This document shows positions 5,404 to 19,221 of a stretch of DNA of 64,000 nt, piece by piece. Made by a program: the position numbers and the translations under genes. Source of the stretch: Methanobacteriota archaeon (GTDB lineage Archaea > Thermoplasmatota > Thermoplasmata > UBA10834); NCBI GenBank assembly GCA_020725925.1, contig DYTN01000007.1, positions 9,233 to 73,232 on the forward strand, in the 5' to 3' direction. How positions within the stretch are numbered: the stretch's first letter is position 1; the number at the start of each line of letters is the position of its first letter. Under the pieces are notes generated by a model that saw nothing but the letters and a program-made list of their open reading frames with translations, was not told where the DNA came from and did no database searches.

Positions 5404-5478
5404 AGCGGGGTGGGGTAGCTTGGAAATCCCATCAGGCTCATAACCTGAAGATCGCTAGTTCAAATCTAGCCCCCGCTA
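5404..5478 (+). tRNA. tRNA-Met(CAT), initiator type
   Basis: Cloverleaf: acceptor AGCGGGG/CCCCGCT with A1-U72, anticodon arm TCAGG-CTCATAA-CCTGA, T arm GCTAG-TTCAAAT-CTAGC, discriminator A; CCA not encoded. Confidence 0.95.
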
Positions 5479-5519
5479 CGATTCGGCATCTAATATATAA
5501 ATATTGCGATTAATCTTGA

Positions 5520-6821: not shown

Positions 6822-8273
6822 ATGAAGGGCATCCCGTGCGTCCACAGAATCAAGGTTCTTTCCGAAGAGCAGCTGGCCATGATTCACGAGGCCTCCTTGA
6901 AGCTATTGGAGCGGACCGGGATCAGGTTCGACAGCGCGGACGCCCGCGCGAGGCTTCTCCGCTGTGGCGCCCTGCCACATTATTCGCGCAAGTCCGTCTT
7001 GACATTCCCGCGATCAGTGGTCGAGGACGCCATCACGAGGGTTCCTCGGAAGGTTAGGTACTATGCCAGAGATCCTCGCTGGGACATCGAGTACGACGGG
7101 GAACACATGTTCACGTACGCCGGTGGAGGCGACCCAAAGATGGTCGACCTGGACTCTGGCCAGGTGAGGCCGTCGACATATTCGGACATCGAGATGGCCG
7201 CGTGCCTGGGTGACGCTCTTGAGAACTGCCGGTTCGCCGCCGGTCTCGTCGAGCCGACCGATGTGCCTCCTCAGATGACGGGTATCAAGAGCGTCGAGGC
7301 GATGATGAGGAATTCCGTCAAGCCCATCTCGTCCCACGCCTTCGACAGGCAGACCGTGGACTTCCTCGCGAAGATGGGTGCCTGTGTCGCTGGTGGGGCG
7401 GAGGCGTTGCGGAGGAGGCCCCTCATCTCTCTCGGTGGTTCCCCAAGCAGCCCCTTGACCTACTCCGAGAAGATGTGCGACGTGCTCATCCGAAGTGCCG
7501 AGCTCGGGATACCCTATTCGATTGTTCCGTGCCCCATCTGCGGCGAGACCGGGCCCATGACCTTGAGCGGCTCGCTCGCGCAGCAGAACGCCGAGCTCCT
7601 CGCCGGGCTGGTGCTGCTCCAGAGCATCGACGCGAGCCTCTCGACCGTTTACTCAGGCAGGGTCTGTGTCATGGATCCGCGGTCCGGGAGGGACCTCTGG
7701 GGGACACCCGAGCAATGCCTTGCGGGCGTCGCCATGGTGCAGATCGCTCGCAAGTATGGGATGGTCTCCGACGTGTGCGGTATGAATTCCGACATCCCCG
7801 GGTGGGGCCTTCAGATGGGACTGGAGCGCATGATGACCGTGCTCGTGCCCGCGCTGGCTGGTGCGGAGAGCGTGTCCGGGATCGGGACCGGCTGGGAGGG
7901 CGCCAGCAGTCTCGAGGCGATGGTGATTGACGACGAGATCCTGAACGACGTTGCCAGGCTGATGCGCGGGATCGATGTGGACGAGGCCACGTTGGGTGTG
8001 GACGTCGTCGACAGAGTGGGTCACATGGGCAGCTTCCTGGCCCAGCCGCACACGATGGAGTATCTCCGCAAGGGCGAGGTCAGGATATCTGAGCTGTGGG
8101 ACAAGCGCACTTCCGAGGCGGCCGCGAGGGAGGGCAGGAGGGCAGTCGAAGAAGTCGCGAGGGAGCGCGTGAAGGCGATTTTGAAGGAGCACGTGCCCGA
8201 GCCCTTGGACAGGGATGTGGACAGGGCCATGACCCAGGTCGTGAAGGAGGCGCAGAGAGCCCTCGTCGGATGA
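6822..8273 (+). CDS. MttB-superfamily methyltransferase, non-pyrrolysine type
   Basis: IHEASLKLLERTGI, SSPLTY, GPMTLSGSLAQQNAELLAG, MVIDDEI, GSFLAQPHT motifs; 483 aa with no in-frame TAG. Confidence 0.9.
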   Translation: MKGIPCVHRIKVLSEEQLAMIHEASLKLLERTGIRFDSADARARLLRCGALPHYSRKSVLTFPRSVVEDAITRVPRKVRYYARDPRWDIEYDGEHMFTYAGGGDPKMVDLDSGQVRPSTYSDIEMAACLGDALENCRFAAGLVEPTDVPPQMTGIKSVEAMMRNSVKPISSHAFDRQTVDFLAKMGACVAGGAEALRRRPLISLGGSPSSPLTYSEKMCDVLIRSAELGIPYSIVPCPICGETGPMTLSGSLAQQNAELLAGLVLLQSIDASLSTVYSGRVCVMDPRSGRDLWGTPEQCLAGVAMVQIARKYGMVSDVCGMNSDIPGWGLQMGLERMMTVLVPALAGAESVSGIGTGWEGASSLEAMVIDDEILNDVARLMRGIDVDEATLGVDVVDRVGHMGSFLAQPHTMEYLRKGEVRISELWDKRTSEAAAREGRRAVEEVARERVKAILKEHVPEPLDRDVDRAMTQVVKEAQRALVG

Positions 8274-9853: not shown

Positions 9854-11644
9854 ATGTGCGGGATAGTCGGATACGCTGGCAGGCGCGAGGCGCAGCCTAT
9901 ACTCCTTGACTGCCTTAAGCGGCTGGAGTACAGGGGTTACGACTCGGCGGGCATAGCAGTCGCAGGCAAGGGGCTGCAGCTGTTCAAGTCGAAGGGCGAG
10001 ATCGCGGTGCTCGAGTCGAAGATGCCCCGGATGCCGGGGACCGTCGGGATCGCGCACACGAGGTGGGCCACGCAAGGCAAGCCCACGACGGAGAACGCGC
10101 ATCCGCTCGACGACTGCTCTCACAGGCTGGCCATCGTGCACAACGGCATCATAAGCAACTTCATGGGGTTGAAGGAGTCCCTGGTGAAGGACGGGCACAG
10201 GTTCGCCAGTGAGACGGACACCGAGGTCTTCGCGCACTTGGTCGAGTCCGAGCTGAAGGGCGACCTCGTGGACGCCGTCTCGAAGGCGCTCAGGCAGGTC
10301 GAGGGCACATACGCCTTCGCTGTCGTGGCCGCGGACCGGAGCGAGATCGTGGCGACCAGGCGGGAGAGCCCTCTGGTCGTCGGCCTGGGAGAGGGGGAGA
10401 ACTTCCTCGCGAGCGACGTGACGGCCCTGTTGAAGTACACCAACCGTGTCGTCTACATCCAGGACGACGAGGTCGTCCGGGTCACGATGGACTCGGTGTC
10501 GATCCGCGGTCCCAGCGGGGAGCTGGTCGAGCGCGAGGCGCAGAAGATCACATGGAGCCTCGAGGATGCGGAGAAGGGCGGGTATCCTCACTTCATGCTG
10601 AAGGAGATATTCGAGCAGCCTGACGCCATCCACGACTCCCTGCTCGGGAGGATCGAGACGCTCGAGACGGAGCCGTTCTTCCAGGGGGACAGCTTCACCA
10701 GCGTCAAGGTGGTCGCGTGCGGCACGTCGTATCATGCGGGGCTCGTCGGGAAGTACATCATCGAGGAGCTCGCGAAGATCCCCACCACGGTCCAGATATC
10801 CTCTGAGTACAGGTACTCCCCGGTCGCGAGGGAGAGCCCGCTCGTGGTGCTCATCACCCAGAGCGGCGAGACCGCGGACACATTGGGCGCCGCGAGGGAG
10901 GCGAGGAAGAGGGGCAACAAGACCGTGGGCATAGCGAACGTCGTGGGCTCGGCCATCACGCGCGAGGTGGACCACGTGATATACACACGGGCGGGGCCGG
11001 AGATAGGCGTGGCCGCGACGAAGACCTTCGCGACGCAGCTCGCGGCGCTGTATCTCTTGGCTATGGACCTCGGGGTCCAGAACCGGGTGCTGACGGCCCA
11101 GGCGAAGAGGTCCATCACGGGCTCTCTAAGGAACCTCCCCAGGGCTGTCCAGGATGTGTTGAACCAGGCGCACCTGATCGAGGCCCTCGCGAACAAGTAC
11201 TCGGGTGCGAAGGACATGTTCTTCATCGGAAGGGGGATCAACTACCCCGTCGCCTTGGAGGGCGCGCTCAAGACCAAGGAGATATCGTACGTCCACGGGG
11301 AGGGGTTCCCCGCCGGGGAGCTCAAGCACGGGCCCTTGGCGCTCATCTCGAAGGAATCGCCCGTGGTGGCCATCGCGGTCAAGGACCACACCTACGAGAG
11401 GATGCTCGGGAACATAAGCGAGTGTTCCGCCAGAGGAAGCCCAGTGATAGCGGTGGCGTTCGAAGGGGACACGGAGATAGCGAAGTACGTGGACGATACC
11501 ATCCGCGTGCGGGAGATCCCGCCGATATTCGCGCCCGTGCCCATCATTGTGGTGCTCCAGCTGTGGGCATACTACCTGGCAAAGGCGAAGGGATGCCCGA
11601 TTGACAAGCCGAGGAACATCGCCAAGACGGTGACCGTCGAGTGA
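9854..11644 (+). CDS. glmS: Glutamine-fructose-6-phosphate aminotransferase
   Basis: MCGIVG N-terminus, HTRWAT, SQSGETADT-like TQSGETADT, PRNIAKTVTVE C-terminus. Confidence 0.97.
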   Translation: MCGIVGYAGRREAQPILLDCLKRLEYRGYDSAGIAVAGKGLQLFKSKGEIAVLESKMPRMPGTVGIAHTRWATQGKPTTENAHPLDDCSHRLAIVHNGIISNFMGLKESLVKDGHRFASETDTEVFAHLVESELKGDLVDAVSKALRQVEGTYAFAVVAADRSEIVATRRESPLVVGLGEGENFLASDVTALLKYTNRVVYIQDDEVVRVTMDSVSIRGPSGELVEREAQKITWSLEDAEKGGYPHFMLKEIFEQPDAIHDSLLGRIETLETEPFFQGDSFTSVKVVACGTSYHAGLVGKYIIEELAKIPTTVQISSEYRYSPVARESPLVVLITQSGETADTLGAAREARKRGNKTVGIANVVGSAITREVDHVIYTRAGPEIGVAATKTFATQLAALYLLAMDLGVQNRVLTAQAKRSITGSLRNLPRAVQDVLNQAHLIEALANKYSGAKDMFFIGRGINYPVALEGALKTKEISYVHGEGFPAGELKHGPLALISKESPVVAIAVKDHTYERMLGNISECSARGSPVIAVAFEGDTEIAKYVDDTIRVREIPPIFAPVPIIVVLQLWAYYLAKAKGCPIDKPRNIAKTVTVE

Positions 11645-11652
11645 CCGCCCGG

Positions 11653-12660
11653 TCAGGCGAGCCGCTCCGGGCAGATGGGCCTCCGGGAGCAGTGGACGCA
11701 CTTCCCGGGCCTGTTGTGGTTCCTGTGCACATCGCCGGTCTTTGAGATCTCGCGCATCTCCGCGAGCTTCTCCAGCAGGACCTTCTTGAGGTCCTCGTTG
11801 TACTCGATCTCGTGCTCATGCTCCGGGTACTTGAGCAGCCCGTACGGAGGAGCTCTCCCCTTCGTCTCCTCGATGAGAAGGCAGTATGCGGCGATCTGGA
11901 GTATGTGTGAGAAGAGCGGCCCTCGCGGAGTCCTCCCCGTCTTCTCCTCGACCGGGATGACATTGTCGTTCATCTTGATGACGTAGTCTGGCCTGCCCGT
12001 CAGCCCGTGTTTCTCCGACTTGAACACCATGGAGTTGTCGAGGTCTATGTACTCTATCTTCCCATCTACTCTGAACTCCTTCCTGAGCCCTTCCACAATA
12101 TCTGTCGAGCGGAGGGATCTGTAGAGGAAGAACGACGCCCCGACCAGCCACGCCACTGCGACCGCCTCAAGCGCCTCCGCCAGCCTGATGTCCTTGATCA
12201 GGAACGCAACCGCGCTCACAGCTACGATCACGGCAACTATCGCGAAGATGAGGATGATTTTCTCGTACTCGACGACGGAGCTCTGGATCGTCGACTTGGC
12301 AGACTTGTACAGGAAGAAGAGAGCCGCGAGCACCCATATGAGGGCTACAACGCCCAGTATCTGGGATATCGTGACTGATTCCTTGAGCGGGAGGAGTTCG
12401 AGGCCGATGATCGCCGTCACCGTCGCAACTATCGCCCACCAGAACACGAGCTTCTCGGACTCGCGTGCAGTCCTCTCACCGGAATCTATCTTCCACAGGG
12501 ACCTGCCCAGGCGGTCGTGCCCCTTGATCCCCTGCGCCAGCCCCTCGCTCTCGCCCTCGAACTCCGAGCTCAGCCACCAGCTCAGGGGACAGTAGCTGTA
12601 CTTCTCCAGGTCCCCCGCTGATATGTACTTGGCCGAGGTTCGGTTCATCCGGGGAATCAT
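11653..12660 (-). CDS. Solo Cas4-like Fe-S/PD-(D/E)xK nuclease with four inserted transmembrane helices
   Basis: N-terminal ISAGDL..YSYCP..WWL and G..GH; GRPDY...VEEKTG; QIAAY; C-terminal CVHCSRRPIC; hydrophobic block at about aa 70-182. Confidence 0.85.
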   Translation of the reverse strand: MIPRMNRTSAKYISAGDLEKYSYCPLSWWLSSEFEGESEGLAQGIKGHDRLGRSLWKIDSGERTARESEKLVFWWAIVATVTAIIGLELLPLKESVTISQILGVVALIWVLAALFFLYKSAKSTIQSSVVEYEKIILIFAIVAVIVAVSAVAFLIKDIRLAEALEAVAVAWLVGASFFLYRSLRSTDIVEGLRKEFRVDGKIEYIDLDNSMVFKSEKHGLTGRPDYVIKMNDNVIPVEEKTGRTPRGPLFSHILQIAAYCLLIEETKGRAPPYGLLKYPEHEHEIEYNEDLKKVLLEKLAEMREISKTGDVHRNHNRPGKCVHCSRRPICPERLA

Positions 12661-12672
12661 GCTTGCCTAGTC

Positions 12673-13458
12673 CTAAGAACCTTTCCACCCGATCTTGTCG
12701 CGCTCGCAGTCGTCGAAGAAGGTGCCTGGGAGGAGCACGATGCCCTCCGGGGGCTCGATTCCCTCAAGGAACCCGAACCAGTAGACGACCGCGCCCGGGC
12801 CGAAGATGTCTGTGTAAGGCTTGAGCTGCCTACGGACGTTCTTTCTGAGCTCGATCTCGTCCCCGAAGGACGCCTTGGATTCGATCCAGCAGACCTTCGT
12901 GCCGTCGATATGTATGGGCTTGTCAAGGAGGCAGTCAGGGGTCTTCTTGTGTGTGTTCCTGAGGTCCTCCTCGGTCCTGTACGTTATGCCCCTCTTGTCC
13001 AGCCACTCGTGGAGCTTCCTCTCGCCCCACACGCCTCTGTCGGTCTGTATCTGGGCGCCCCTGGGTGAGTAGACCATGTCCTCCTCGTCTATCTGCTGGA
13101 ACTCCTTCTTGAGCCTCTTGTCGTGGCAGGTGTTCGGGTCTCGGATGTACTTCCAGTACTGCTTCCTCGTGAGGTGTATCTCCGGTGCCATCATCAGCCC
13201 GAGCAGCACGGGCGGGAAGTTGATCTGCCTCGCGATGCGGGCTATCGGCGTGCCCCTCCGCCACTCCTTCGCGATCTTCTTGATGTCCTTCTTGACGATG
13301 TAGAACCTCCTCGTGGCGTCCCTGACGGTCCTCTGGGTGTAGAGCACCAAGAGGAACTCTCGGTCCATGCCGAGCTTCTTGGCGAGGTAGTCTATGTCGT
13401 GTGCCTTTCTGAGCTGAGAATAGATGTCTCTATAGTCTTCGAACTTCATCAGTGTCAC
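12673..13458 (-). CDS. CDIN1/C15orf41 (TPD domain) family PD-(D/E)xK nuclease homolog
   Basis: KTPDCLL..PI.I.G..VCWIESKASFG and Q...Y...FGPGAVVYWFGF; N-terminal helical/HTH region. Confidence 0.85.
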   Translation of the reverse strand: MTLMKFEDYRDIYSQLRKAHDIDYLAKKLGMDREFLLVLYTQRTVRDATRRFYIVKKDIKKIAKEWRRGTPIARIARQINFPPVLLGLMMAPEIHLTRKQYWKYIRDPNTCHDKRLKKEFQQIDEEDMVYSPRGAQIQTDRGVWGERKLHEWLDKRGITYRTEEDLRNTHKKTPDCLLDKPIHIDGTKVCWIESKASFGDEIELRKNVRRQLKPYTDIFGPGAVVYWFGFLEGIEPPEGIVLLPGTFFDDCERDKIGWKGS

Positions 13459-13656
13459 AGTCCAGCCTAGCGCTGAACGATCCGTTCAATCCGCTTCTGT
13501 TTGCGCCTGTTATATTCTCAGTCTACTTATGCCTTTGCGGCCGACCGCCACATTCTCCCTGCCTGGTTGGCCCAAACATTAATGCTGCACAAGCTTGAAA
13601 TGCGCACAAGTCATGGCCATCCTGCCGTTCTATGCGGCTTTTGGGAGGTGCTTGGA

Positions 13657-14754
13657 TTGCCTGAGAGTGGTGTCCGAAGGGTCATCCTGCCAGCGCGGTA
13701 CGTCCAAGGCTCGGGCGTGCTCAGCCAGCTGGGGTCCCACGTTAGGCAGTACGGCACGAGGCCCTTCGTGGTCGCCGGGCGGACGAGCTTCTCCAAGGTC
13801 AAGGCTCGGGTCCAGGCGAGCCTCCTGGCCGCGGGGGTTCCTGTGGTCGCCTACGACGACAGCGTGGGCGAGTGCACAATGGCCAAGATAAACGAAATCG
13901 CCGCTCGGGCCGATGAGCTAGATGTCGACGTGGTCGTCGGCTGCGGCGGGGGCAAGGCCGTCGACACCGCCAAAGCCGTGGCTGAGAAGCTGCACGTGCC
14001 TGCCATCACTGTTCCCACGCAGTGCGCGACCAATGCGGACGGCATGGCCGATGCGGTCATATTCACGGAGGACCACAGGTTCGTCCAGGACCTGTACCTG
14101 AGCAGGGCGCCTGTGCTCGTGCTCGTCGACACCGACGTGGTCGCCCGAGCGCCGCCCCAGTACCTCGTGCAGGGCATGGGCGACGCGCTCGCGAGCGCCT
14201 TCGAGAAGCCGGCATACGCGGCGTCCCAGCGCATGAAGAAGGCTGCGGACCAGGCCACCGAGGCCGCGCTCGAGGTCAACCTGAGATGCTTCTCGGTGCT
14301 CATGGCTCACGGCCTCCAGGCCAAGAAGGATGTCGAGGCTGGGAAGGTGACGGACTCGGTCGAGGCCGTGGTCGAGGCCATCAAGCTGATGAGCGGGTTC
14401 GGATTCGGTGGCGGAGGATGCGCCGCGGCACACGCGGTACACAACGGCCTCACCATCATCCCAGGGATTGCGCGCAAGCACGGCGAGATCGTTGCCTACG
14501 GCGTCCTCGTCCAGATGGTCCTCGAGAAGCGGCAGATGGGCGAGATCGAGCGGGTCATGCGCTGGTGCAAATCGCTCGGGCTCCCCACTCGGCTGAGGGA
14601 CCTCGGGGAGATCGACCGGGGCCAGCTGTTGGCCGCCGCCGAGAAGGCCTGCGACCCGACCGACTCGATGAGCTCCATGCCCTTCGCGGTCACCCCGAGG
14701 ATGGTCCTGGAGGCAATCGAGGAAGTCGAGAGGCTCGGAACGGCTCTGTCGTAG
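13657..14754 (+). CDS. Glycerol dehydrogenase / iron-containing alcohol dehydrogenase family
   Basis: PARYVQGSG, GCGGGKAVDTAKA, GMGDALA, AAAHAVHNGLT, HGEIVAYG; TTG start at 13657 after GGAGGTG. Confidence 0.88.
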   Translation: MPESGVRRVILPARYVQGSGVLSQLGSHVRQYGTRPFVVAGRTSFSKVKARVQASLLAAGVPVVAYDDSVGECTMAKINEIAARADELDVDVVVGCGGGKAVDTAKAVAEKLHVPAITVPTQCATNADGMADAVIFTEDHRFVQDLYLSRAPVLVLVDTDVVARAPPQYLVQGMGDALASAFEKPAYAASQRMKKAADQATEAALEVNLRCFSVLMAHGLQAKKDVEAGKVTDSVEAVVEAIKLMSGFGFGGGGCAAAHAVHNGLTIIPGIARKHGEIVAYGVLVQMVLEKRQMGEIERVMRWCKSLGLPTRLRDLGEIDRGQLLAAAEKACDPTDSMSSMPFAVTPRMVLEAIEEVERLGTALS

Positions 14755-14889: not shown

Positions 14890-15519
14890 ATGAGCAGTCC
14901 GATAAGTACTATCATTGCGCCTGCTGCGAGCCCGCCGTGGTTGCCCAGGGAAGTCGCCGAGGGCCGCAAGTTCGCCTGGTGGGCGCAGATGTCGTTCTTT
15001 GGCATGGCGTTCATATGGTTTCTGCTTGCCATCGTGTCGATAGTCCTGTATGTGGACAACGGAGGCAGGGGAGCGCTCGTCGTGGGCGTCTTCGGGTTCT
15101 TCGCCATGCTGATATGCTTCACGGCCGCCGTGTTCGAGAGGAAGACCGTAATAGACGCGATCGACCAGGGGAGGTTCCACGACGCGAAGAACGACAGCAT
15201 CGTGTGGATCATCTTCGGGCTCGTCGGGTTCGTCATACCTGCGCTGTTCCTTATCCTCACCTATGCCAAGCTCGGGGACGCGCTCGCTGCCCAAGCGCCA
15301 GTGGGCTACCAGCCATACTCCCCGGGCACGGTCCAGGTGCAGCAGCCGGCCCCGTACGCGCCACCGCCCGCACCGATCCAGCCCCCGCCCGTCCCGCAGG
15401 CACCGCCGCCAGCTGCAGCGGCGCACCACGCGACTCCGATGGTCAGGTGCAAGAACTGCAACGTGCAGTACCCGGTGTTCATGCATTCGTGCCCGAACTG
15501 CGGCGCCCCGAAAGAGTGA
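14890..15519 (+). CDS. Membrane protein with Pro-rich linker and C-terminal zinc ribbon
   Basis: Three hydrophobic segments, PYAPPPAPIQPPP linker, CKNC...CPNCGAP; GGAGG RBS. Confidence 0.75.
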   Translation: MSSPISTIIAPAASPPWLPREVAEGRKFAWWAQMSFFGMAFIWFLLAIVSIVLYVDNGGRGALVVGVFGFFAMLICFTAAVFERKTVIDAIDQGRFHDAKNDSIVWIIFGLVGFVIPALFLILTYAKLGDALAAQAPVGYQPYSPGTVQVQQPAPYAPPPAPIQPPPVPQAPPPAAAAHHATPMVRCKNCNVQYPVFMHSCPNCGAPKE

Positions 15520-15571
15520 AGCTATCTCCTCCATCGGCCATTCTGCGTTCCCACAGGGCCCAGTGAACACC

Positions 15572-16288
15572 ATGACAGAGATGCTCTACATGAAGGACGT
15601 CGATTCAAACTACATCAGGGAGTTCGACGCGAGGGTTCTCGAGCGAGGGTTCGACTTCGTGGTCCTGGACAGGACCGCCTTCTATCCCCTTGGTGGGGGG
15701 CAACCGTCGGACACCGGACACCTCGAGTGGCCAGGCGGGAAGGCAGAGGTGCGCGAGGTGACCAAGAAGGAGGGCGTGAGGCACCACCTGGTCCAGAACC
15801 CTGATATCGTCCCCGAGATCGTACACGGCGTGCTCAACTGGGAGCGCAGGTATGCTCACATGAAGATGCACACGGCGCAGCACATCGTCTCGGGCGTGGT
15901 CTACGATCTGTACAAGGCCAGGACCGTTGGCAACCAGCTGTATCACGACAGGTCGAGGATAGATTTCGCCCCTGTCAAGTTCACGGACGAGATGCTCGCG
16001 GAAGTGGAGAGGAAGTGCAACGAGGTCCTCTCTACGGGCGCGAAGGTCGAGATCTGCACGGCAGCGCGGGCCGAGCTCGAACAGACGGTTGATTCTCAGA
16101 GGGCCAACTTGGACCTGCTGCCGAAGTCCGTCCAGGACCTCAGGGTCGTCAAGGTGGAGGAGTTCGACGTGTGCCCCTGTGCCGGCACTCATGTGAGATC
16201 CCTCGCCGAAATCGGCAAGGTGAGGATCACGAAGTGCGAGAACAAGGGGAAGGACAGGGAGAGGGTCACTTACGAGCTCGTCGCCTGA
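15572..16288 (+). CDS. alaX: Alanyl-tRNA editing protein AlaX-M
   Basis: TAFYPLGGGQPSDTG, HTAQH, CPCAGTHV motifs. Confidence 0.93.
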   Translation: MTEMLYMKDVDSNYIREFDARVLERGFDFVVLDRTAFYPLGGGQPSDTGHLEWPGGKAEVREVTKKEGVRHHLVQNPDIVPEIVHGVLNWERRYAHMKMHTAQHIVSGVVYDLYKARTVGNQLYHDRSRIDFAPVKFTDEMLAEVERKCNEVLSTGAKVEICTAARAELEQTVDSQRANLDLLPKSVQDLRVVKVEEFDVCPCAGTHVRSLAEIGKVRITKCENKGKDRERVTYELVA

Positions 16289-16379: not shown

Positions 16380-16628
16380 ATGGTCGAGGCAGAAACGGCG
16401 GCGCAGGTTTCCAAGCTGTCGATGCAGATGAGCATCTTGTTCGGGATCATCGGCGTCGGCCTGCTGTATCTTGCGATCGGCATATCAGACGCGTCGAACG
16501 AGGTCAAGATAATCTGGGCGAGCGGCCTCTCGCTGACTGTCGCGTTCATGTTCCTTGTCATATGGACCATGGCGAGAGACAGCATACTGTCGCGCGAGAG
16601 GGAGCTCCGAAGGAAGCTGATGCCTTAG
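16380..16628 (+). CDS. Small two-TM membrane protein
   Basis: Two hydrophobic helices; host-like codon usage; start 16380 or 16350. Confidence 0.6.
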   Translation: MVEAETAAQVSKLSMQMSILFGIIGVGLLYLAIGISDASNEVKIIWASGLSLTVAFMFLVIWTMARDSILSRERELRRKLMP

Positions 16629-17779
16629 GCAGCCTTCCTGTTGTTCCCGTTCCCCTTTTCCACGTCCTGGGCCGAGTCCAGGAGCAGCTCCATCAGGTCG
16701 ACGACCTTGATTCCTGGGACGGTCCTCAGTTGGGTCTCGCAGAACGGGCACGAGGTCACGATGGTCGTCGCGCCCGTCGCCCTCGCCTCGGCGACCCTCT
16801 TCGTCGCGAGCTCCCGGGAGAGCTTCGGAAACGCTGACTGGAGCCCAGCCCCCGCGCCGCAGCACCTGGACTCGTACCTGTTGTTGGGCATCTCCACGAG
16901 CGTCCCCACAGCATTGACGATCTCCCTGGGCTCCTCGAACACTCCCCCGAGCCTTCCGAGGTGGCAGGGGTCGTGATAGGTGAGGCGCTCCGTGGACCGC
17001 TTCAGGTCGAGCTTCCCTTGCCTCACGAGTCCGCTGATCTCCTGTGCTACATGCCTGACATCGATCTTCACCCCGGACGATTCGACCGACTTCTTCAGCG
17101 TGGTGTAACACCCTGGGCACGCAGTCACGATCTTCTTGATGCCAAGCGACTCGAACTTGCGCATGTTCTCCCGCGACAGCTCCTCGAAGGCCATTGTCTG
17201 GCCCACTCTGAGGAGCGTGGACCCGCAGCACGGCTCGTCCTGACCCATCGTGGCGAACTTCACGCCAGCCCTTTGGAGCAGCCTCGCGCTGGCGACTAAG
17301 CTCCTGTTCAGGGGCTTCGTGACGGCCGAAGTGCATCCGGCGAAGAACAGCACCTCGGGGCCTCCAGGAGAAGCTTTTGATATGTTCAGTCCCTTCGTCC
17401 ACCTGTTCCTCGCACTCCTTGGCTGAAACCACGGGTTGCCGTAGTTCTTGATGCTGGCCAGGAGGGAGGAGTGTTCCTTCATCGGCTCGACGCCGTGCTT
17501 GAGCAGGTACTCCCTAAAAGCACGCGTGTGCTCGGTGTTCTTCAGCGAGCACCACCTGTCGCAGTTGCCGCACAGGGTGCATTCGAACGCCGCCTGGACC
17601 ACGGCCGGCGTGATCTCGAACCTGCCCTGGAGCAGGCCGAGCATGGTCCTGTTCCTGCCCCTCATGCAGAGCGTCTTCACCTTGAGCGTCTGGTACACCG
17701 GGCAGCCCCTCTCGCAGAAGCCGCAGGAGGTTCCGAAGCAGGTCTCGAGCTCCTCCCTGAACTCCTCGAGGCCATTCAC
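16625..17779 (-). CDS. Fe-S / CCG-domain protein (GlcF/HdrD-like)
   Basis: CGFCERGCP, CTLCGNCDRWC, FAGC, CCG, ACPGC, YHDPCHL, CCGAG, SCPFC; GTG start overlaps upstream stop. Confidence 0.9.
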   Translation of the reverse strand: MNGLEEFREELETCFGTSCGFCERGCPVYQTLKVKTLCMRGRNRTMLGLLQGRFEITPAVVQAAFECTLCGNCDRWCSLKNTEHTRAFREYLLKHGVEPMKEHSSLLASIKNYGNPWFQPRSARNRWTKGLNISKASPGGPEVLFFAGCTSAVTKPLNRSLVASARLLQRAGVKFATMGQDEPCCGSTLLRVGQTMAFEELSRENMRKFESLGIKKIVTACPGCYTTLKKSVESSGVKIDVRHVAQEISGLVRQGKLDLKRSTERLTYHDPCHLGRLGGVFEEPREIVNAVGTLVEMPNNRYESRCCGAGAGLQSAFPKLSRELATKRVAEARATGATTIVTSCPFCETQLRTVPGIKVVDLMELLLDSAQDVEKGNGNNRKAA

Positions 17780-19221
17780 CTGCCGGCCCCCTCGCGCCCG
17801 AACTTCTTGCCCGGGTTCATGATGCCCTTCGGGTCGAACAGCCTCTTGACCTCCCTCATGTACTTCAGGGAGGCGCCGTGCTCCAGCTCGAGGTACGGGG
17901 CCTTCTGGTAGGTGTCGCTCATGAAGGTGCTCATGGTGCCTTCGAAGGCCACCGCGAGCCTGCTGAGCTCGTCGTGGAACTCCCGGAACCTCCTCACCTC
18001 GTCCTTGTCCCTGTAGTTCACGAAGACCGCGCAGGAGAGGGAGAAGCCGATGCTGTTGGGATGCGCCAGGTACGCGTTCATGCCTATGATCTCGAGCCCG
18101 TGCTTCTCGGCCACGCTGATGAACTTGTGATAGAACTCCTCGAGACGGCCGACAGGCACTCCCGGATCTGCCGCGCCGAACTTCTTCTTCGTCTGCGAGT
18201 CCGGCCACGTCTGCTTGAAGGGCTCGAAGTCCAGCGTATACTTGGACATCCACCATGAGTCGACTATCTCGCGCTCTTCCACGAGCTGGGCCTCGAACTC
18301 CTTGGCGATCTTGAGCGCGTGTGCCCTGTGCGAATCCACGACCTCGACATCGCCTGCGAAGGCTATCGCGAGCAGGGCCTCCGCCCATTGTGGGATGTCC
18401 GGGTCCTTCCCGTGCTTTAGCTTGTAGCTGTGCGTGTAGAACCTGAGCCTGCGCTTGCAGTTGATGTGGGCGGCCTCTATGCACAGGCCTGCTTTCAGGA
18501 GCCTGCTGAGGTAGTCGACCGCAGCGCCCATGCGTGGGAATACGAGCATGTCGACCCTGCGAGACGGAGGGATCGGTTCGAGCTTCAGCGTCGCCTCGGT
18601 GATGATTCCGAGCGTGCCCTCGCTCCCCGCGAGCAGGTCCTTGAGCTTGTAGCCCGAGGATGTGAAGTGGGCCTTCCTGTGGCCCAGCTCGAGTATCTCG
18701 CCCGTGCCTGTGACAATCTCCGCGCTCAGCAGGCAGTTGAGTATCTTGCCGTACCTCACCCCGAATGTGGAGTCGTTGTCGCAGGCGATTGCGGAGCCGA
18801 CCGTGCTGACCCATTTCGATTCAGGCTGATGCGGGAGCCAGAGGTCGTAGGGCTGTACCGCGTCGTTGACCTCCTGGAGCGTCGCCCCTGCCTGGGCCCT
18901 CACCGTCTGGTTCTTGGGATCGATCTCCACTATCGCGTTCATTGTGGTCGTATCGACGTAGATGCCGCCGAATATCGGGACAGCGCCGCCGAGCATGCCC
19001 GTGAGGCCGCCGCCCGCAGTCACGGGGATGTCGTGGGCATAGGCGATTTTGACCAGCCGCTGGACGTCCTTGGTCGACCTCGGCAAGACGACGACGTCTG
19101 GCGGGACGAACTCGTCCGGGGTTCTGGGGCTCCAGTCCGCCCCGTACACGAACTTCTCGGAGGGATCTGTGAGGACCTTCTCCCTGCCGAGGACCGCCAC
19201 GAGTTCGTCTATGTATGTCAT
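17776..19221 (-). CDS. FAD-binding oxidoreductase (GlcD/D-lactate dehydrogenase-like)
   Basis: PDVVVLP, GGGLTGMLGGA, GSEGTLGIITEATLKL, FDPKGIMNPGK. Confidence 0.9.
   Translation of the reverse strand: MTYIDELVAVLGREKVLTDPSEKFVYGADWSPRTPDEFVPPDVVVLPRSTKDVQRLVKIAYAHDIPVTAGGGLTGMLGGAVPIFGGIYVDTTTMNAIVEIDPKNQTVRAQAGATLQEVNDAVQPYDLWLPHQPESKWVSTVGSAIACDNDSTFGVRYGKILNCLLSAEIVTGTGEILELGHRKAHFTSSGYKLKDLLAGSEGTLGIITEATLKLEPIPPSRRVDMLVFPRMGAAVDYLSRLLKAGLCIEAAHINCKRRLRFYTHSYKLKHGKDPDIPQWAEALLAIAFAGDVEVVDSHRAHALKIAKEFEAQLVEEREIVDSWWMSKYTLDFEPFKQTWPDSQTKKKFGAADPGVPVGRLEEFYHKFISVAEKHGLEIIGMNAYLAHPNSIGFSLSCAVFVNYRDKDEVRRFREFHDELSRLAVAFEGTMSTFMSDTYQKAPYLELEHGASLKYMREVKRLFDPKGIMNPGKKFGREGAGR

Follow-up and report, generated by a model that had tools for sequence, protein, structure and literature searches.

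Two adjacent nuclease genes lie in the window, the 64,000-nucleotide stretch of DNA from an archaeon of the class Thermoplasmata that was analysed here, and our observations suggest that they are neighbours by inherited gene order and not the components of a dedicated two-part system. One belongs to the TPD/CDIN1 (C15orf41) family (hereafter TPD), the other encodes a solo Cas4-family nuclease with a membrane insert (hereafter Cas4TM). We consider it probable, at roughly 60%, that both are intact, single-copy and vertically inherited nucleases that share a short, lineage-specific operon and are functionally independent of each other. What we computed here is the integrity of the genes, their families, motifs and folds, and their distribution and synteny; substrates, topology and co-transcription we infer.

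Table 1. Features of the TPD/Cas4TM locus and its surroundings, in window coordinates.
Feature	Position	Strand	Remarks
TPD/CDIN1 (C15orf41)-family gene	12673..13458	-	261 aa ORF, GTG start; PF14811 match
TPD N-terminal all-helical domain	13123..13458	-	~residues 1-112 in 261-aa numbering; HTH-like candidate for nucleic-acid binding
TPD PD-(D/E)xK nuclease domain	12745..13122	-	Pfam stretch, residues 113-238
Intergenic spacer TPD/Cas4TM	12661..12672	-	12 nt; 24 nt if the Cas4TM start is 12648
Cas4TM, solo Cas4-family nuclease with membrane insert	11653..12660	-	335 aa ORF, ATG start
Cas4TM four-helix hydrophobic insert	12127..12450	-	residues 67-174 of the 331-aa form
Cas4TM Cas4/RecB-type nuclease core and C-terminal Cys triad	11656..12066	-	~residues 195-331
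glmS	9854..11644	+	convergent neighbour; member of the synteny block, outside the nuclease pair
Fe-ADH/glycerol-dehydrogenase-like gene	13501..14754	+	PF00465; divergent from TPD
Membrane zinc-ribbon gene "c4"	14890..15519	+	from protein clustering; divergent from TPD in the ancestral block

The layout described by the sequence-only reading, namely two co-oriented genes 12 nt apart that are bounded by oppositely oriented ones, holds: both are minus-strand ORFs, and they are enclosed by the convergent glmS and the divergent Fe-ADH (glycerol dehydrogenase-like) gene (Table 1). The likely true starts are ATG 13449 for TPD, yielding 258 aa, and ATG 12648 for Cas4TM, yielding 331 aa, which correspond to the database versions of the two proteins. 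With a spacer of 12–24 nt, a separate promoter has no room in the gap. Across 54 related adjacent loci the gap, taken as the distance between the TPD stop codon and the closest upstream ATG for Cas4, is 24 nt at the median (range −23 to 99), and such consistently short or overlapping gaps make co-transcription plausible. At the other end, the stop codons of Cas4TM and glmS are 8 nt apart. The base composition is ordinary, with a GC content of 0.56–0.62 in the pair region and 0.60–0.66 in the flanks. The Fe-ADH gene is present only in loci L071–L103 and is an insertion specific to the source genome's family, located between TPD and "c4"; the homologue of the latter gives weak DUF4064 and Zn-ribbon matches.

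Judged by its sequence, the TPD gene is an archaeal orthologue of human CDIN1 with the putative metal-binding residues E...D...ExK intact. The protein matches the PF14811 TPD profile over residues 113–238 (E 3.3e-43; 147.3 bits against a cut-off of 27), and both the TPD and the WIESKA motif are present, which confirms the homology to CDIN1/C15orf41 proposed earlier. In the scan of the source genome the same profile scores 148.7 bits and the gene is single-copy; 900 homologues at E ≤ 1e-3 go by the NCBI names "C15orf41 family protein" or "TPD domain-containing protein". In alignments of 14 and 60 sequences, E143, D172 and K192 (numbering of the 258-aa form) are invariant and E190 occurs in at least 90% of the rows. 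Their spacing is the same as that of E166/D196/E214/K216 in human CDIN1, as given in the available text of PMC13463051, a correspondence that is based on spacing and motif and not on a direct alignment with the human protein. The structural model (m1833b0515c9b) has a pLDDT of 93.2 and an all-helical N-terminal part (residues 3–123 at pLDDT >90), and human CDIN1 likewise carries a helical N-terminal domain before its nuclease domain. The best match in an HTH profile search of TPD, HTH_Cbp1, is sub-threshold (E 0.024; 14.6 bits against a threshold of 140); the HTH nature of the CDIN1 N-terminus comes from the CDIN1 literature (PMC7261414, in the part available). A PDB sequence search with the TPD profile returned 0 hits, the TPD model produced nothing at E ≤ 1e-3 in Foldseek and weak PD-(D/E)xK matches only, and these sequence and fold searches did not turn up a solved structure of the family. 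In the literature searched, archaeal TPD proteins did not appear beyond the CDIN1 papers.

What this nuclease might act on can be judged from its human relative, whose function the sequence-only reading had called poorly understood. This still applies to the cellular role and no longer to the activity: according to the accessible portion of PMC13463051 (2026), human CDIN1 is an RNA nuclease that cuts RNA and not DNA, and the protein works bound to Codanin-1, by which the substrate is fed. By analogy, we infer that the archaeal TPD protein does not cut DNA but shortens the 3' ends of RNA in RNA duplexes or RNA:DNA hybrids. Archaeal (euryarchaeal) orthologues of C15orf41 have already been reported, with a human-versus-archaeal E of ~1e-34 (PMC7092493). 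As the available part of the same study describes Codanin-1 as younger than C15orf41, the archaeal protein would be expected to work on its own or with a different partner.

The second gene had been read as a membrane Cas4, and this assignment stands on Cas4 profile matches above the cut-offs, on four hydrophobic windows and on four long model helices. The profile matches (PF12705, 3.8e-12, 47.1 bits against 22; PF01930, 1.1e-8, 35.8 against 22.7; TIGR00372 cas4, 72.4 bits against 65) cover residues ~187–331 together with a weak N-terminal stretch, and 1032 homologues were retrieved at E ≤ 1e-3. Among 36 sequences D221, K236, Q251 and Y255 are invariant and E234 is nearly so, which constitutes a RecB-type D/ExK/QxxxY site; equally invariant are the N-terminal C20 and the cysteines C317, C320 and C326, a 1+3 pattern of predicted [4Fe-4S] ligands. 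The hydrophobic 19-residue windows (Kyte–Doolittle; residues 67–85, 94–112, 131–149 and 156–174 of the 331-aa form) and the long helices of the AlphaFold model (pLDDT 81.9; residues 35–84, 91–118, 122–148 and 154–192) belong to an insert that follows the N-terminal Cys helix and precedes the nuclease core; it lies outside every Cas4 HMM stretch and would separate the first cysteine from the core of the fold. With four helices, an even number, both halves would come to lie on the same side of the membrane, presumably in the cytoplasm, where Fe-S clusters are assembled. Since the loops carry balanced numbers of K/R and D/E, the positive-inside rule gives no orientation, and the one predicted here is derived solely from the even count of helices and from the requirement for Fe-S assembly. 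By analogy with its relatives, Cas4TM may process DNA ends at the inner membrane face, and the contrast between RNA as the likely substrate of TPD and DNA as that of Cas4TM is drawn from distant homologues.

In fold comparisons, the top PDB matches of Cas4TM in Foldseek are the Cas4 structures 8d3q_J (E 1e-5), 4ic1 and 7mi4, and profile matches in the PDB are 8d3l, 4ic1 and 4r5q. The best structure and sequence matches thus stem from the Cas4 of CRISPR adaptation (Cas4–Cas1–Cas2, 8D3Q/7MI4), from which Cas4TM differs in its added membrane insert and in its context: its neighbours are glmS, TPD and Fe-ADH, there are no cas genes among them, and a scan for Cas1 (PF01867) gave no match in the source genome, the assembly of which is 92.9% complete. 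Cas4TM is also the only PF12705 match in this genome; a PF01930 scan missed even the window's gene, and the absence accordingly rests on the PF12705 and Cas1 scans. Because no Cas1 was found and the neighbours are not cas genes, we file Cas4TM as a solo-Cas4, and the label "CRISPR-associated exonuclease Cas4" reflects homology, not context. Solo-Cas4 proteins are described as vertically inherited and common in archaea (PMC5704561, in part), and the one from Methanosarcina mazei is reported to cut DNA (available text of PMC12501428). With archaeal solo-Cas4 (COG1468/PF01930; SSO0001, 4IC1, and M. mazei) Cas4TM shares the RecB motifs, the 1+3 cysteines and the Cas4 fold, and, as the accessible part of PMC5704561 describes for this group, it lies outside CRISPR-cas loci and has a distribution and trees that fit vertical inheritance. 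It departs from them by the extra ~110-residue four-helix insert, which brings it to 331 aa compared with the 190–218 residues of Cas4 chains in the PDB. No published description of a membrane-inserted Cas4 was found in the literature searched; the word "transmembrane" has 0 occurrences in the main text of PMC5704561, whose supplements may list this branch. The membrane-split solo Cas4 is widespread in Thermoplasmatota, annotated only as "CRISPR-associated Cas4", and this four-helix-inserted protein is a more novel element of the locus than the pair.

How firmly the two genes belong together was assessed by their neighbourhoods in other genomes. TPD and Cas4TM are adjacent in 26 of the 77 class-level genomes that have both genes, the arrangement extends over five families (f1, f2, f8 and f26 in the class and f31 in the phylum sample), and of 80 public loci 60 are adjacent, 17 are not and 3 are broken by contig ends. 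Public loci that bear the pair include some titled Methanomassiliicoccus or Methanomassiliicoccaceae (e.g. L109, L135–L137 and L140). The sequence-only reading had named an adjacency unique to this genome as the observation that would speak against a new system; the adjacency recurs elsewhere. In the other 51 of the 77 genomes the pair is unlinked, where "not adjacent" denotes different contigs or a distance of >10 kb, and where a partner may have been lost at a contig break in fragmented assemblies. In other classes of the phylum, 0 of the 70 genomes with both genes show the adjacency. Adjacency and presence/absence counts were tallied by hand from the genome tables. In one genome (G060), the contig that carries TPD breaks off there with no more than 24 residues of Cas4TM, and a complete Cas4TM resides on another contig. 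Within the fetched flanks, which span ~4 kb where the contig allows and less near contig ends, absence of the partner was confirmed on the DNA in 12 TPD loci (L039–L050) and in 19 of the 20 fetched Cas4TM loci L051–L070 (L051–L066, L067, L069 and L070); in the remaining one, L068, TPD is found at the contig end. In a TPD tree (39 rows from fetched loci, one to seven per family; unrooted, midpoint for drawing; four long branches) the adjacent families do not form one clade, with 4 changes of which at least 2 are forced by well-supported branches. This non-monophyly fits either repeated loss or selective retention.

The presence and absence of the two genes give a clearer picture. Of the 151 genomes in the class set, 111 have TPD and 102 a Cas4TM-type match; both genes occur in 77, TPD alone in 34, Cas4TM alone in 25 and neither in 15. 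Co-occurrence is hence at chance level (77 observed versus 75 expected), for which we claim no statistical test, because kin are not independent. Set aside from the Cas4TM count were 21 genomes with weak, mostly C-terminal-only Cas4 matches (15 in f11, 5 in f19, and G088); the f11 tallies include the unpublished genome G098, with TPD and a weak Cas4 match, on which no conclusion hangs. Whole families possess just one of the genes: TPD occurs without Cas4TM in f6 (16/16, and 23/23 in the phylum sample), f7 and f30, and Cas4TM without TPD in f16 (17/17), f14 (3/3), f20 (2/2) and f27 as well as in f32 of another class (11/11). Moreover, in loci L111, L117, L141 and L177 Cas4TM has been cleanly lost from between TPD and glmS.

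The flanks of the pair are conserved to the same degree. The convergent Cas4TM–glmS junction is found in all 55 informative adjacent loci and the c4–TPD junction in 47 of 50 (20 direct, 27 with the Fe-ADH gene between), which means that the pair is no better kept than its junctions with unrelated genes. The ancestral block would have comprised the membrane Zn-ribbon gene, TPD divergent from it, Cas4TM downstream of TPD in the same orientation, and glmS convergent with Cas4TM, next to glmU in the orientation of glmS. TPD and Cas4TM would adjoin because this block was kept in part of the class Thermoplasmata, not because of mutual need. RNase HII is located in the same block, 1–5 kb away and on the opposite strand in pair-bearing loci; it shares the strand only in locus L044 of f6, where Cas4TM is absent. 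For human CDIN1, a DepMap link to RNase H2 is mentioned in the available part of PMC13463051; owing to the distance and the opposite strand, we rejected RNase HII as a functional hint for TPD and treated it as synteny only.

Operon partners are often functionally related, and this counts against independence, as does the persistence of the pair down to 45–51% (TPD) and 36–47% (Cas4TM) identity to the window proteins. The soluble TPD nuclease and the membrane Cas4 could thus form a functional two-nuclease module in repair or membrane DNA handling, in which, for example, TPD strips RNA from RNA:DNA hybrids or primed ends and Cas4TM then resects the DNA. The shared strand and the short gap agree with such a module, as do the recurrence of the adjacency in five families and in most public loci, the presence of RNase HII in the block, and the survival of the pair unsplit while both flanks changed, by the insertion of Fe-ADH in the genome's own family and by c2/c35 replacing glmS/glmU in f8. 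Complementary substrates are also conceivable, namely the RNA strand of hybrids and DNA, as far as the accessible portions of PMC13463051 and PMC12501428 go. We nevertheless judge this module unlikely: the genes co-occur at chance level and, where both are present, lie apart in 51 of 77 genomes of the class and in all 70 of the other classes, entire families have only one of them, TPD was kept where Cas4TM was deleted, the junctions with unrelated genes are equally conserved, and in other families different genes closely adjoin each of the two. Most of these observations also count against the dedicated DNA-processing or defence module put forward by the sequence-only reading, which we do not uphold. 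Independence in presence and absence is compatible with facultative cooperation where both genes occur. A prediction of the TPD–Cas4TM complex gave a score of 0.00 in two runs and, as controls were not folded, counts neither for nor against. We give little credence to the idea that the two proteins cooperate on RNA-containing DNA ends at the membrane and that, separately, Cas4TM represents an undescribed class of membrane-bound DNA-end enzymes; here, TPD would trim the RNA strand and Cas4TM would resect the DNA in the pair-keeping Thermoplasmata clade, with R-loops, primed replication intermediates and incoming DNA as possible substrates.

The genes found close to TPD or Cas4TM in other families raise the question of whether the true partners are to be sought there, in which case the window's arrangement would be a secondary rearrangement. 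Cas4TM, a surface PLD-family protein and a small protein might then process DNA or lipid at the envelope, and TPD might serve as an RNA trimmer with a small-subunit ribosome maturation cluster (aIF-1A, Rio1 kinase and a Dim2/Pno1-like KH protein). Indeed, 7 of the 20 Cas4TM loci that were fetched (L052, L054, L056, L059, L060, L064 and L070) carry a PLD-LTD-PKD gene (PLDc_2, lamin-tail and PKD) immediately upstream of Cas4TM and co-oriented with it, with an 8-nt gap in L052, a convergent ORF of ~105 aa occurs in loci of eight families (f4, f8, f15, f16, f21, f23, f25 and f29), and the order TPD > aIF-1A > RIO1 > KH protein is found in L040, L042, L049 and L050 and in six public loci, in line with CDIN1 as an RNA 3' nuclease (PMC13463051, available text). 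Both contexts are, however, confined to one clade (f15, f21, f23, f25 and f29; 98/95 support in the TPD tree) and may therefore be inherited synteny, like the window's pair. Furthermore, no recurrent TPD neighbour was found in 20 loci of other families, none of the above genes stands by TPD in the 18 of these that come from other classes, and the PLD-LTD homologue of the source genome is on another contig than the pair. We regard partners of this kind as improbable. Even less can be said for an anti-virus defence island, composed of a membrane sensor-nuclease and a second effector nuclease. PADLOC Cas4 models do match the C-terminal core of Cas4TM, including weaker DruK matches, and Cas4-family partners of defence proteins are known: in ACE1-Argonaute (PMC12094033), a Cas4-family protein is reported to act with a neighbouring nuclease, and the ACE1 structures 9iab and 9iac hold ranks 11–12 among the fold matches of Cas4TM. 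That system is defined by co-encoding; in contrast, TPD and Cas4TM have no Argonaute and no defence context, and their linkage is not conserved with co-occurrence. Since the TPD protein has no match among the PADLOC models, each gene occurs in a single copy and the block with glmS/glmU is stable and housekeeping in nature, we rejected this reading as very improbable; trees that follow family groupings, ordinary base composition around the pair and the absence of defence genes nearby likewise speak against it.

A genuine module of the two proteins would place CDIN1, a human disease (anaemia) gene, within a prokaryotic pathway, and cooperation of the two proteins on RNA-containing DNA ends, if true, would be the first cellular pathway context for CDIN1-type nucleases. 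The evidence points away from a module and toward an archaeal CDIN1 orthologue that has no constant partner across the phylum and is kept where Cas4 is lost. As these orthologues are small, Codanin-free and confidently modelled, and the searches turned up no solved structure for the family, they are good material for structure determination and RNA-nuclease tests. Cas4TM, for its part, would by analogy be a DNA-end nuclease tethered to the membrane, a point of relevance to what solo-Cas4 does in archaea.

The CDIN1/C15orf41-family gene (TPD) and the solo Cas4 gene with a membrane insert (Cas4TM) lie as the sequence-only reading had described them: Coordinates and open reading frames agree with two co-oriented genes, separated by 12 nt in the sequence as read, between a convergent glmS and a divergent dehydrogenase gene (see table). 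Public collections place both starts later, yielding proteins of 258 aa (P0001) and 331 aa (P0121), to which all residue numbers refer, so that the gap becomes 24 nt. There is no defence context at the locus: The neighbouring genes are metabolic, the DNA composition around the pair is ordinary, and no PADLOC model matches the TPD protein.

Features of the window and coordinates in related loci (L), genomes (G; G000, source genome) and families (f)
Feature	Position	Strand	Length	Remarks
TPD ORF	12673-13458	-	261 aa	
Cas4TM ORF	11653-12660	-	335 aa	
glmS	9854-11644	+		convergent with Cas4TM; 8 nt separate the stop codons
Fe-ADH/glycerol-dehydrogenase-like gene	13501-14754	+		divergent from TPD
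tRNA-Met (CAT)	5404-5479			sole RNA gene detected in the window
MttB-family methyltransferase ORF	6822-8273			reads through without internal stop; insertion in the synteny block, between SCP2 gene and small conserved ORF
AlaX-like editing-domain ORF	15263-16288			tRNA_SAD plus fragment of class II Ala-tRNA synthetase family
CCG/4Fe-4S heterodisulfide-reductase-like ORF	16625-18814			~340 N-terminal residues resemble an Arg-rich overprint; true start probably far downstream
TPD-aIF-1A-RIO1-KH loci	L040:4631-9930, L042:4707-9989, L049:3390-9618, L050:4707-9868			also L045, L113, L129, L142, L144, L146, L150
PLD protein upstream of Cas4TM	L052:2021-5972, L054:4167-8120			also L056, L059, L060, L064, L070
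RNase HII with SCP2-domain gene	L036:276-1265			in the pair's conserved block, 1-5 kb off; also L032-L034, L038
RNase HII in TPD-only family f6	L044:6508-7479			~1 kb downstream of TPD, same strand
PLD-LTD homologue, source genome	G000:C52:52724-54320		333 and 387 aa	two abutting frames (L152, L153)
TPD at contig end	G060:C21:10-909			L068; followed only by a 24-residue Cas4TM fragment
Cas4TM beside glmS	G060:C16:898-2004			L067; full Cas4TM, opens another contig; genome of the same taxonomic order as the source genome
Longer membrane Cas4 form	L055:4626-6284			G029; also G039, G049, G059, G017 and several other-class genomes

The TPD gene belongs to an already known and annotated family. Its product matches PF14811 (TPD, C15orf41/CDIN1 family; Pfam) at 3.3e-43, the PF14811 profile finds one copy in the source genome (2.04 Mb, 92.9% complete), and homologues from Thermoplasmata and Methanomassiliicoccales MAGs are named 'C15orf41 family protein' or 'TPD domain-containing protein' in their sources; euryarchaeal C15orf41 orthologues, older than Codanin-1, have already been noted (PMC7092493). 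Two alignments, of 14 and 60 sequences, show E143, D172 (from the TPD motif) and K192 without exception and E190 almost always, spaced as the reported catalytic residues E166, D196, E214 and K216 of human CDIN1 (PMC13463051). The AlphaFold model is confident (pLDDT 93.2, pTM 0.86) and consists of helices in its N-terminal half and of a mixed alpha/beta fold in the C-terminal one. The TPD profile has no match among PDB sequences, and Foldseek returned only weak PD-(D/E)xK folds, all with E ≥ 0.03 (AF1548, RPB5 N-domain, DdmD nuclease domain, NucS, Hjc).

Cas4TM exceeds the cut-offs of PF12705, PF01930 and TIGR00372 but is matched over residues ~187-331 only. An alignment of 36 sequences shows no variation at C20, D221, K236, Q251, Y255, C317, C320 and C326 and very little at E234; these positions correspond to a RecB-type active site and to the 1+3 cysteine pattern of Cas4. 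The stretch that separates C20 from the core contains four hydrophobic windows (residues 67-85, 94-112, 131-149 and 156-174), where the model (pLDDT 81.9) shows four long helices; among PDB structures, the fold is best matched by Cas4 of the I-C adaptation complex, SSO0001, a Cas4/Cas1 fusion, MGME1 and ACE1. Because these Cas4 motifs are combined with hydrophobic helices, and neither Cas1 nor a further PF12705 gene was detected in the 92.9% complete source genome, we regard the protein as a solo Cas4 carrying a membrane insert. With an even number of helices, the first cysteine and the C-terminal three would face the same side of the membrane, which we infer to be the cytoplasmic one. The family is known; a description of a Cas4 with such a membrane-inserted architecture could not be found in the main texts searched. 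The insert varies across the phylum, as additional residues separate the N-terminal Cys region from the core in longer forms (open frames of ~500-700 aa), and family f41 has short soluble forms of ~180-230 aa.

The adjacency of the two genes is not unique to this genome and recurs in families f1, f2, f8, f26 and f31. We searched 151 genomes of the class Thermoplasmata with PF14811 and with the Cas4TM protein and compared coordinates: TPD was found in 111 and Cas4TM-type matches in 102, a count that leaves out 21 genomes with weak, mostly C-terminal-only matches (15 in f11, 5 in f19, and G088). The two genes are found together in 77 genomes. Of these, 26 have Cas4TM directly after TPD on the same strand (f1 14/14, f2 2/2 with one case cut by a contig end, f8 9/9, f26 1/1); in the remaining 51, from 17 families, the genes are on separate contigs or distant from each other, as in G021, where 340 kb separate them on one contig. 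A phylum sample of 201 genomes (completeness ≥ 85%) adds f26 (4/4) and f31. Scanning a species-representative collection with the TPD alignment yielded 466 confirmed loci; among the 80 kept, all Thermoplasmata by title, Cas4TM lies directly downstream in 60, not in 17, and 3 are cut by contig ends. The adjacent loci include some titled Methanomassiliicoccus or Methanomassiliicoccaceae (TPD identity 45-51%), and the gap has a median of 24 nt (range -23 to 99; 54 loci). This recurrence across families and public loci, together with the short gaps, indicates that the adjacency is real, old and operon-like. Outside the class, 70 genomes carry both genes, and in none of these are the two adjacent. 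In G060, the two genes on separate contigs (see table) are probably a single locus broken by assembly.

A dedicated two-nuclease system, as had been proposed, is unsupported, and we give it a probability of about one in eight. Co-occurrence in the class is at chance level: TPD alone is present in 34 genomes, Cas4TM alone in 25 and neither in 15, and the expected number with both is 111 x 102 / 151 = 75 versus the 77 observed. Whole families of high-quality genomes retain just one of the two genes, either TPD (f6, 16/16 and 23/23 in the class and phylum samples, mostly 99% complete) or Cas4TM (f16 17/17, f14 3/3, f20 2/2, f32 11/11). In L111, L117, L141 and L177, Cas4TM has been cleanly lost with TPD and glmS left in place; the genome behind L177 (G267) is a single contig, 99% complete, without any match to the Cas4TM alignment. 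Moreover, the pair is part of a wider block in which a membrane Zn-ribbon gene diverges from TPD and glmS, with glmU upstream of it, converges on Cas4TM. Among informative loci with the adjacent pair, glmS follows Cas4TM in 55/55 and the Zn-ribbon gene precedes TPD in 47/50 (20 directly, 27 with the Fe-ADH gene inserted), so that the pair is conserved no better than junctions with unrelated genes. In favour of linkage, the pair stays intact where its flanks change, namely upon Fe-ADH insertion in the source family and upon replacement of glmS/glmU by the genes c2/c35 in f8. On the unrooted TPD tree, the families with adjacency do not form one clade (f8 is sister to non-adjacent f13, f26 to TPD-only f6), and 4 changes are needed, of which well-supported branches force 2 or more; this pattern is compatible with one early origin and several later breakups and losses, and selective retention of the pair would also produce it.

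Elsewhere, each gene has other neighbours, which also speaks against a dedicated system. In a five-family Thermoplasmata clade that is well supported on the TPD tree (f15, f21, f23, f25, f29), TPD has a UPP synthase gene on one side and, on the other, co-directional genes for aIF-1A, RIO1 kinase and a two-KH-domain Dim2/Pno1/KRR1-like protein, which begin directly downstream of TPD and are succeeded by PPDK. These three are small-subunit ribosome maturation genes. As human CDIN1 is an RNA 3' nuclease, this neighbourhood is a lead towards rRNA processing; the linkage is confined to this clade and may be plain synteny. In the same families and f27, Cas4TM lies ~8 nt (8 nt in L052) downstream of a gene whose 650-880-aa product combines two PLD-like (PLDc_2) stretches with lamin-tail domains (LTD) and a PKD domain, and a conserved ~105-aa ORF without Pfam match converges on Cas4TM; together they may constitute an envelope-associated nucleic-acid or lipid processing set. 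In f14 (L061, L065) the PLD gene and Cas4TM are separated by a metallo-beta-lactamase-fold gene. The source genome's own PLD-LTD homologue, either frameshifted or split, is not linked to Cas4TM. The clade-specific neighbours are absent from 20 TPD loci of other families (18 from other classes), and these loci show no recurrent TPD neighbour beyond close relatives. RNase HII genes near TPD are listed in the table; CDIN1 is reported to be genetically co-dependent with RNase H2 (PMC13463051).

Human CDIN1 is reported to cut from the 3' end, acting on dsRNA and on the RNA strand of RNA:DNA hybrids, with Codanin-1 positioning the substrate and DNA left uncleaved (PMC13463051); an earlier study reports no activity at all (PMC7261414). 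Solo-Cas4 proteins are described as common among archaea, passed on vertically and without a known role (PMC5704561), and that of M. mazei as binding a [4Fe-4S] cluster and cutting dsDNA (PMC12501428). From these relatives, the most economical reading is that TPD would act as an RNA-end nuclease and Cas4TM as a membrane-tethered DNA-end nuclease with separate jobs, probably expressed on one transcript in this lineage. More promising leads than a two-nuclease system are the solo Cas4 with its membrane insert and, as a tractable, Codanin-free model for structural work and RNA-nuclease assays, the archaeal CDIN1 orthologue.
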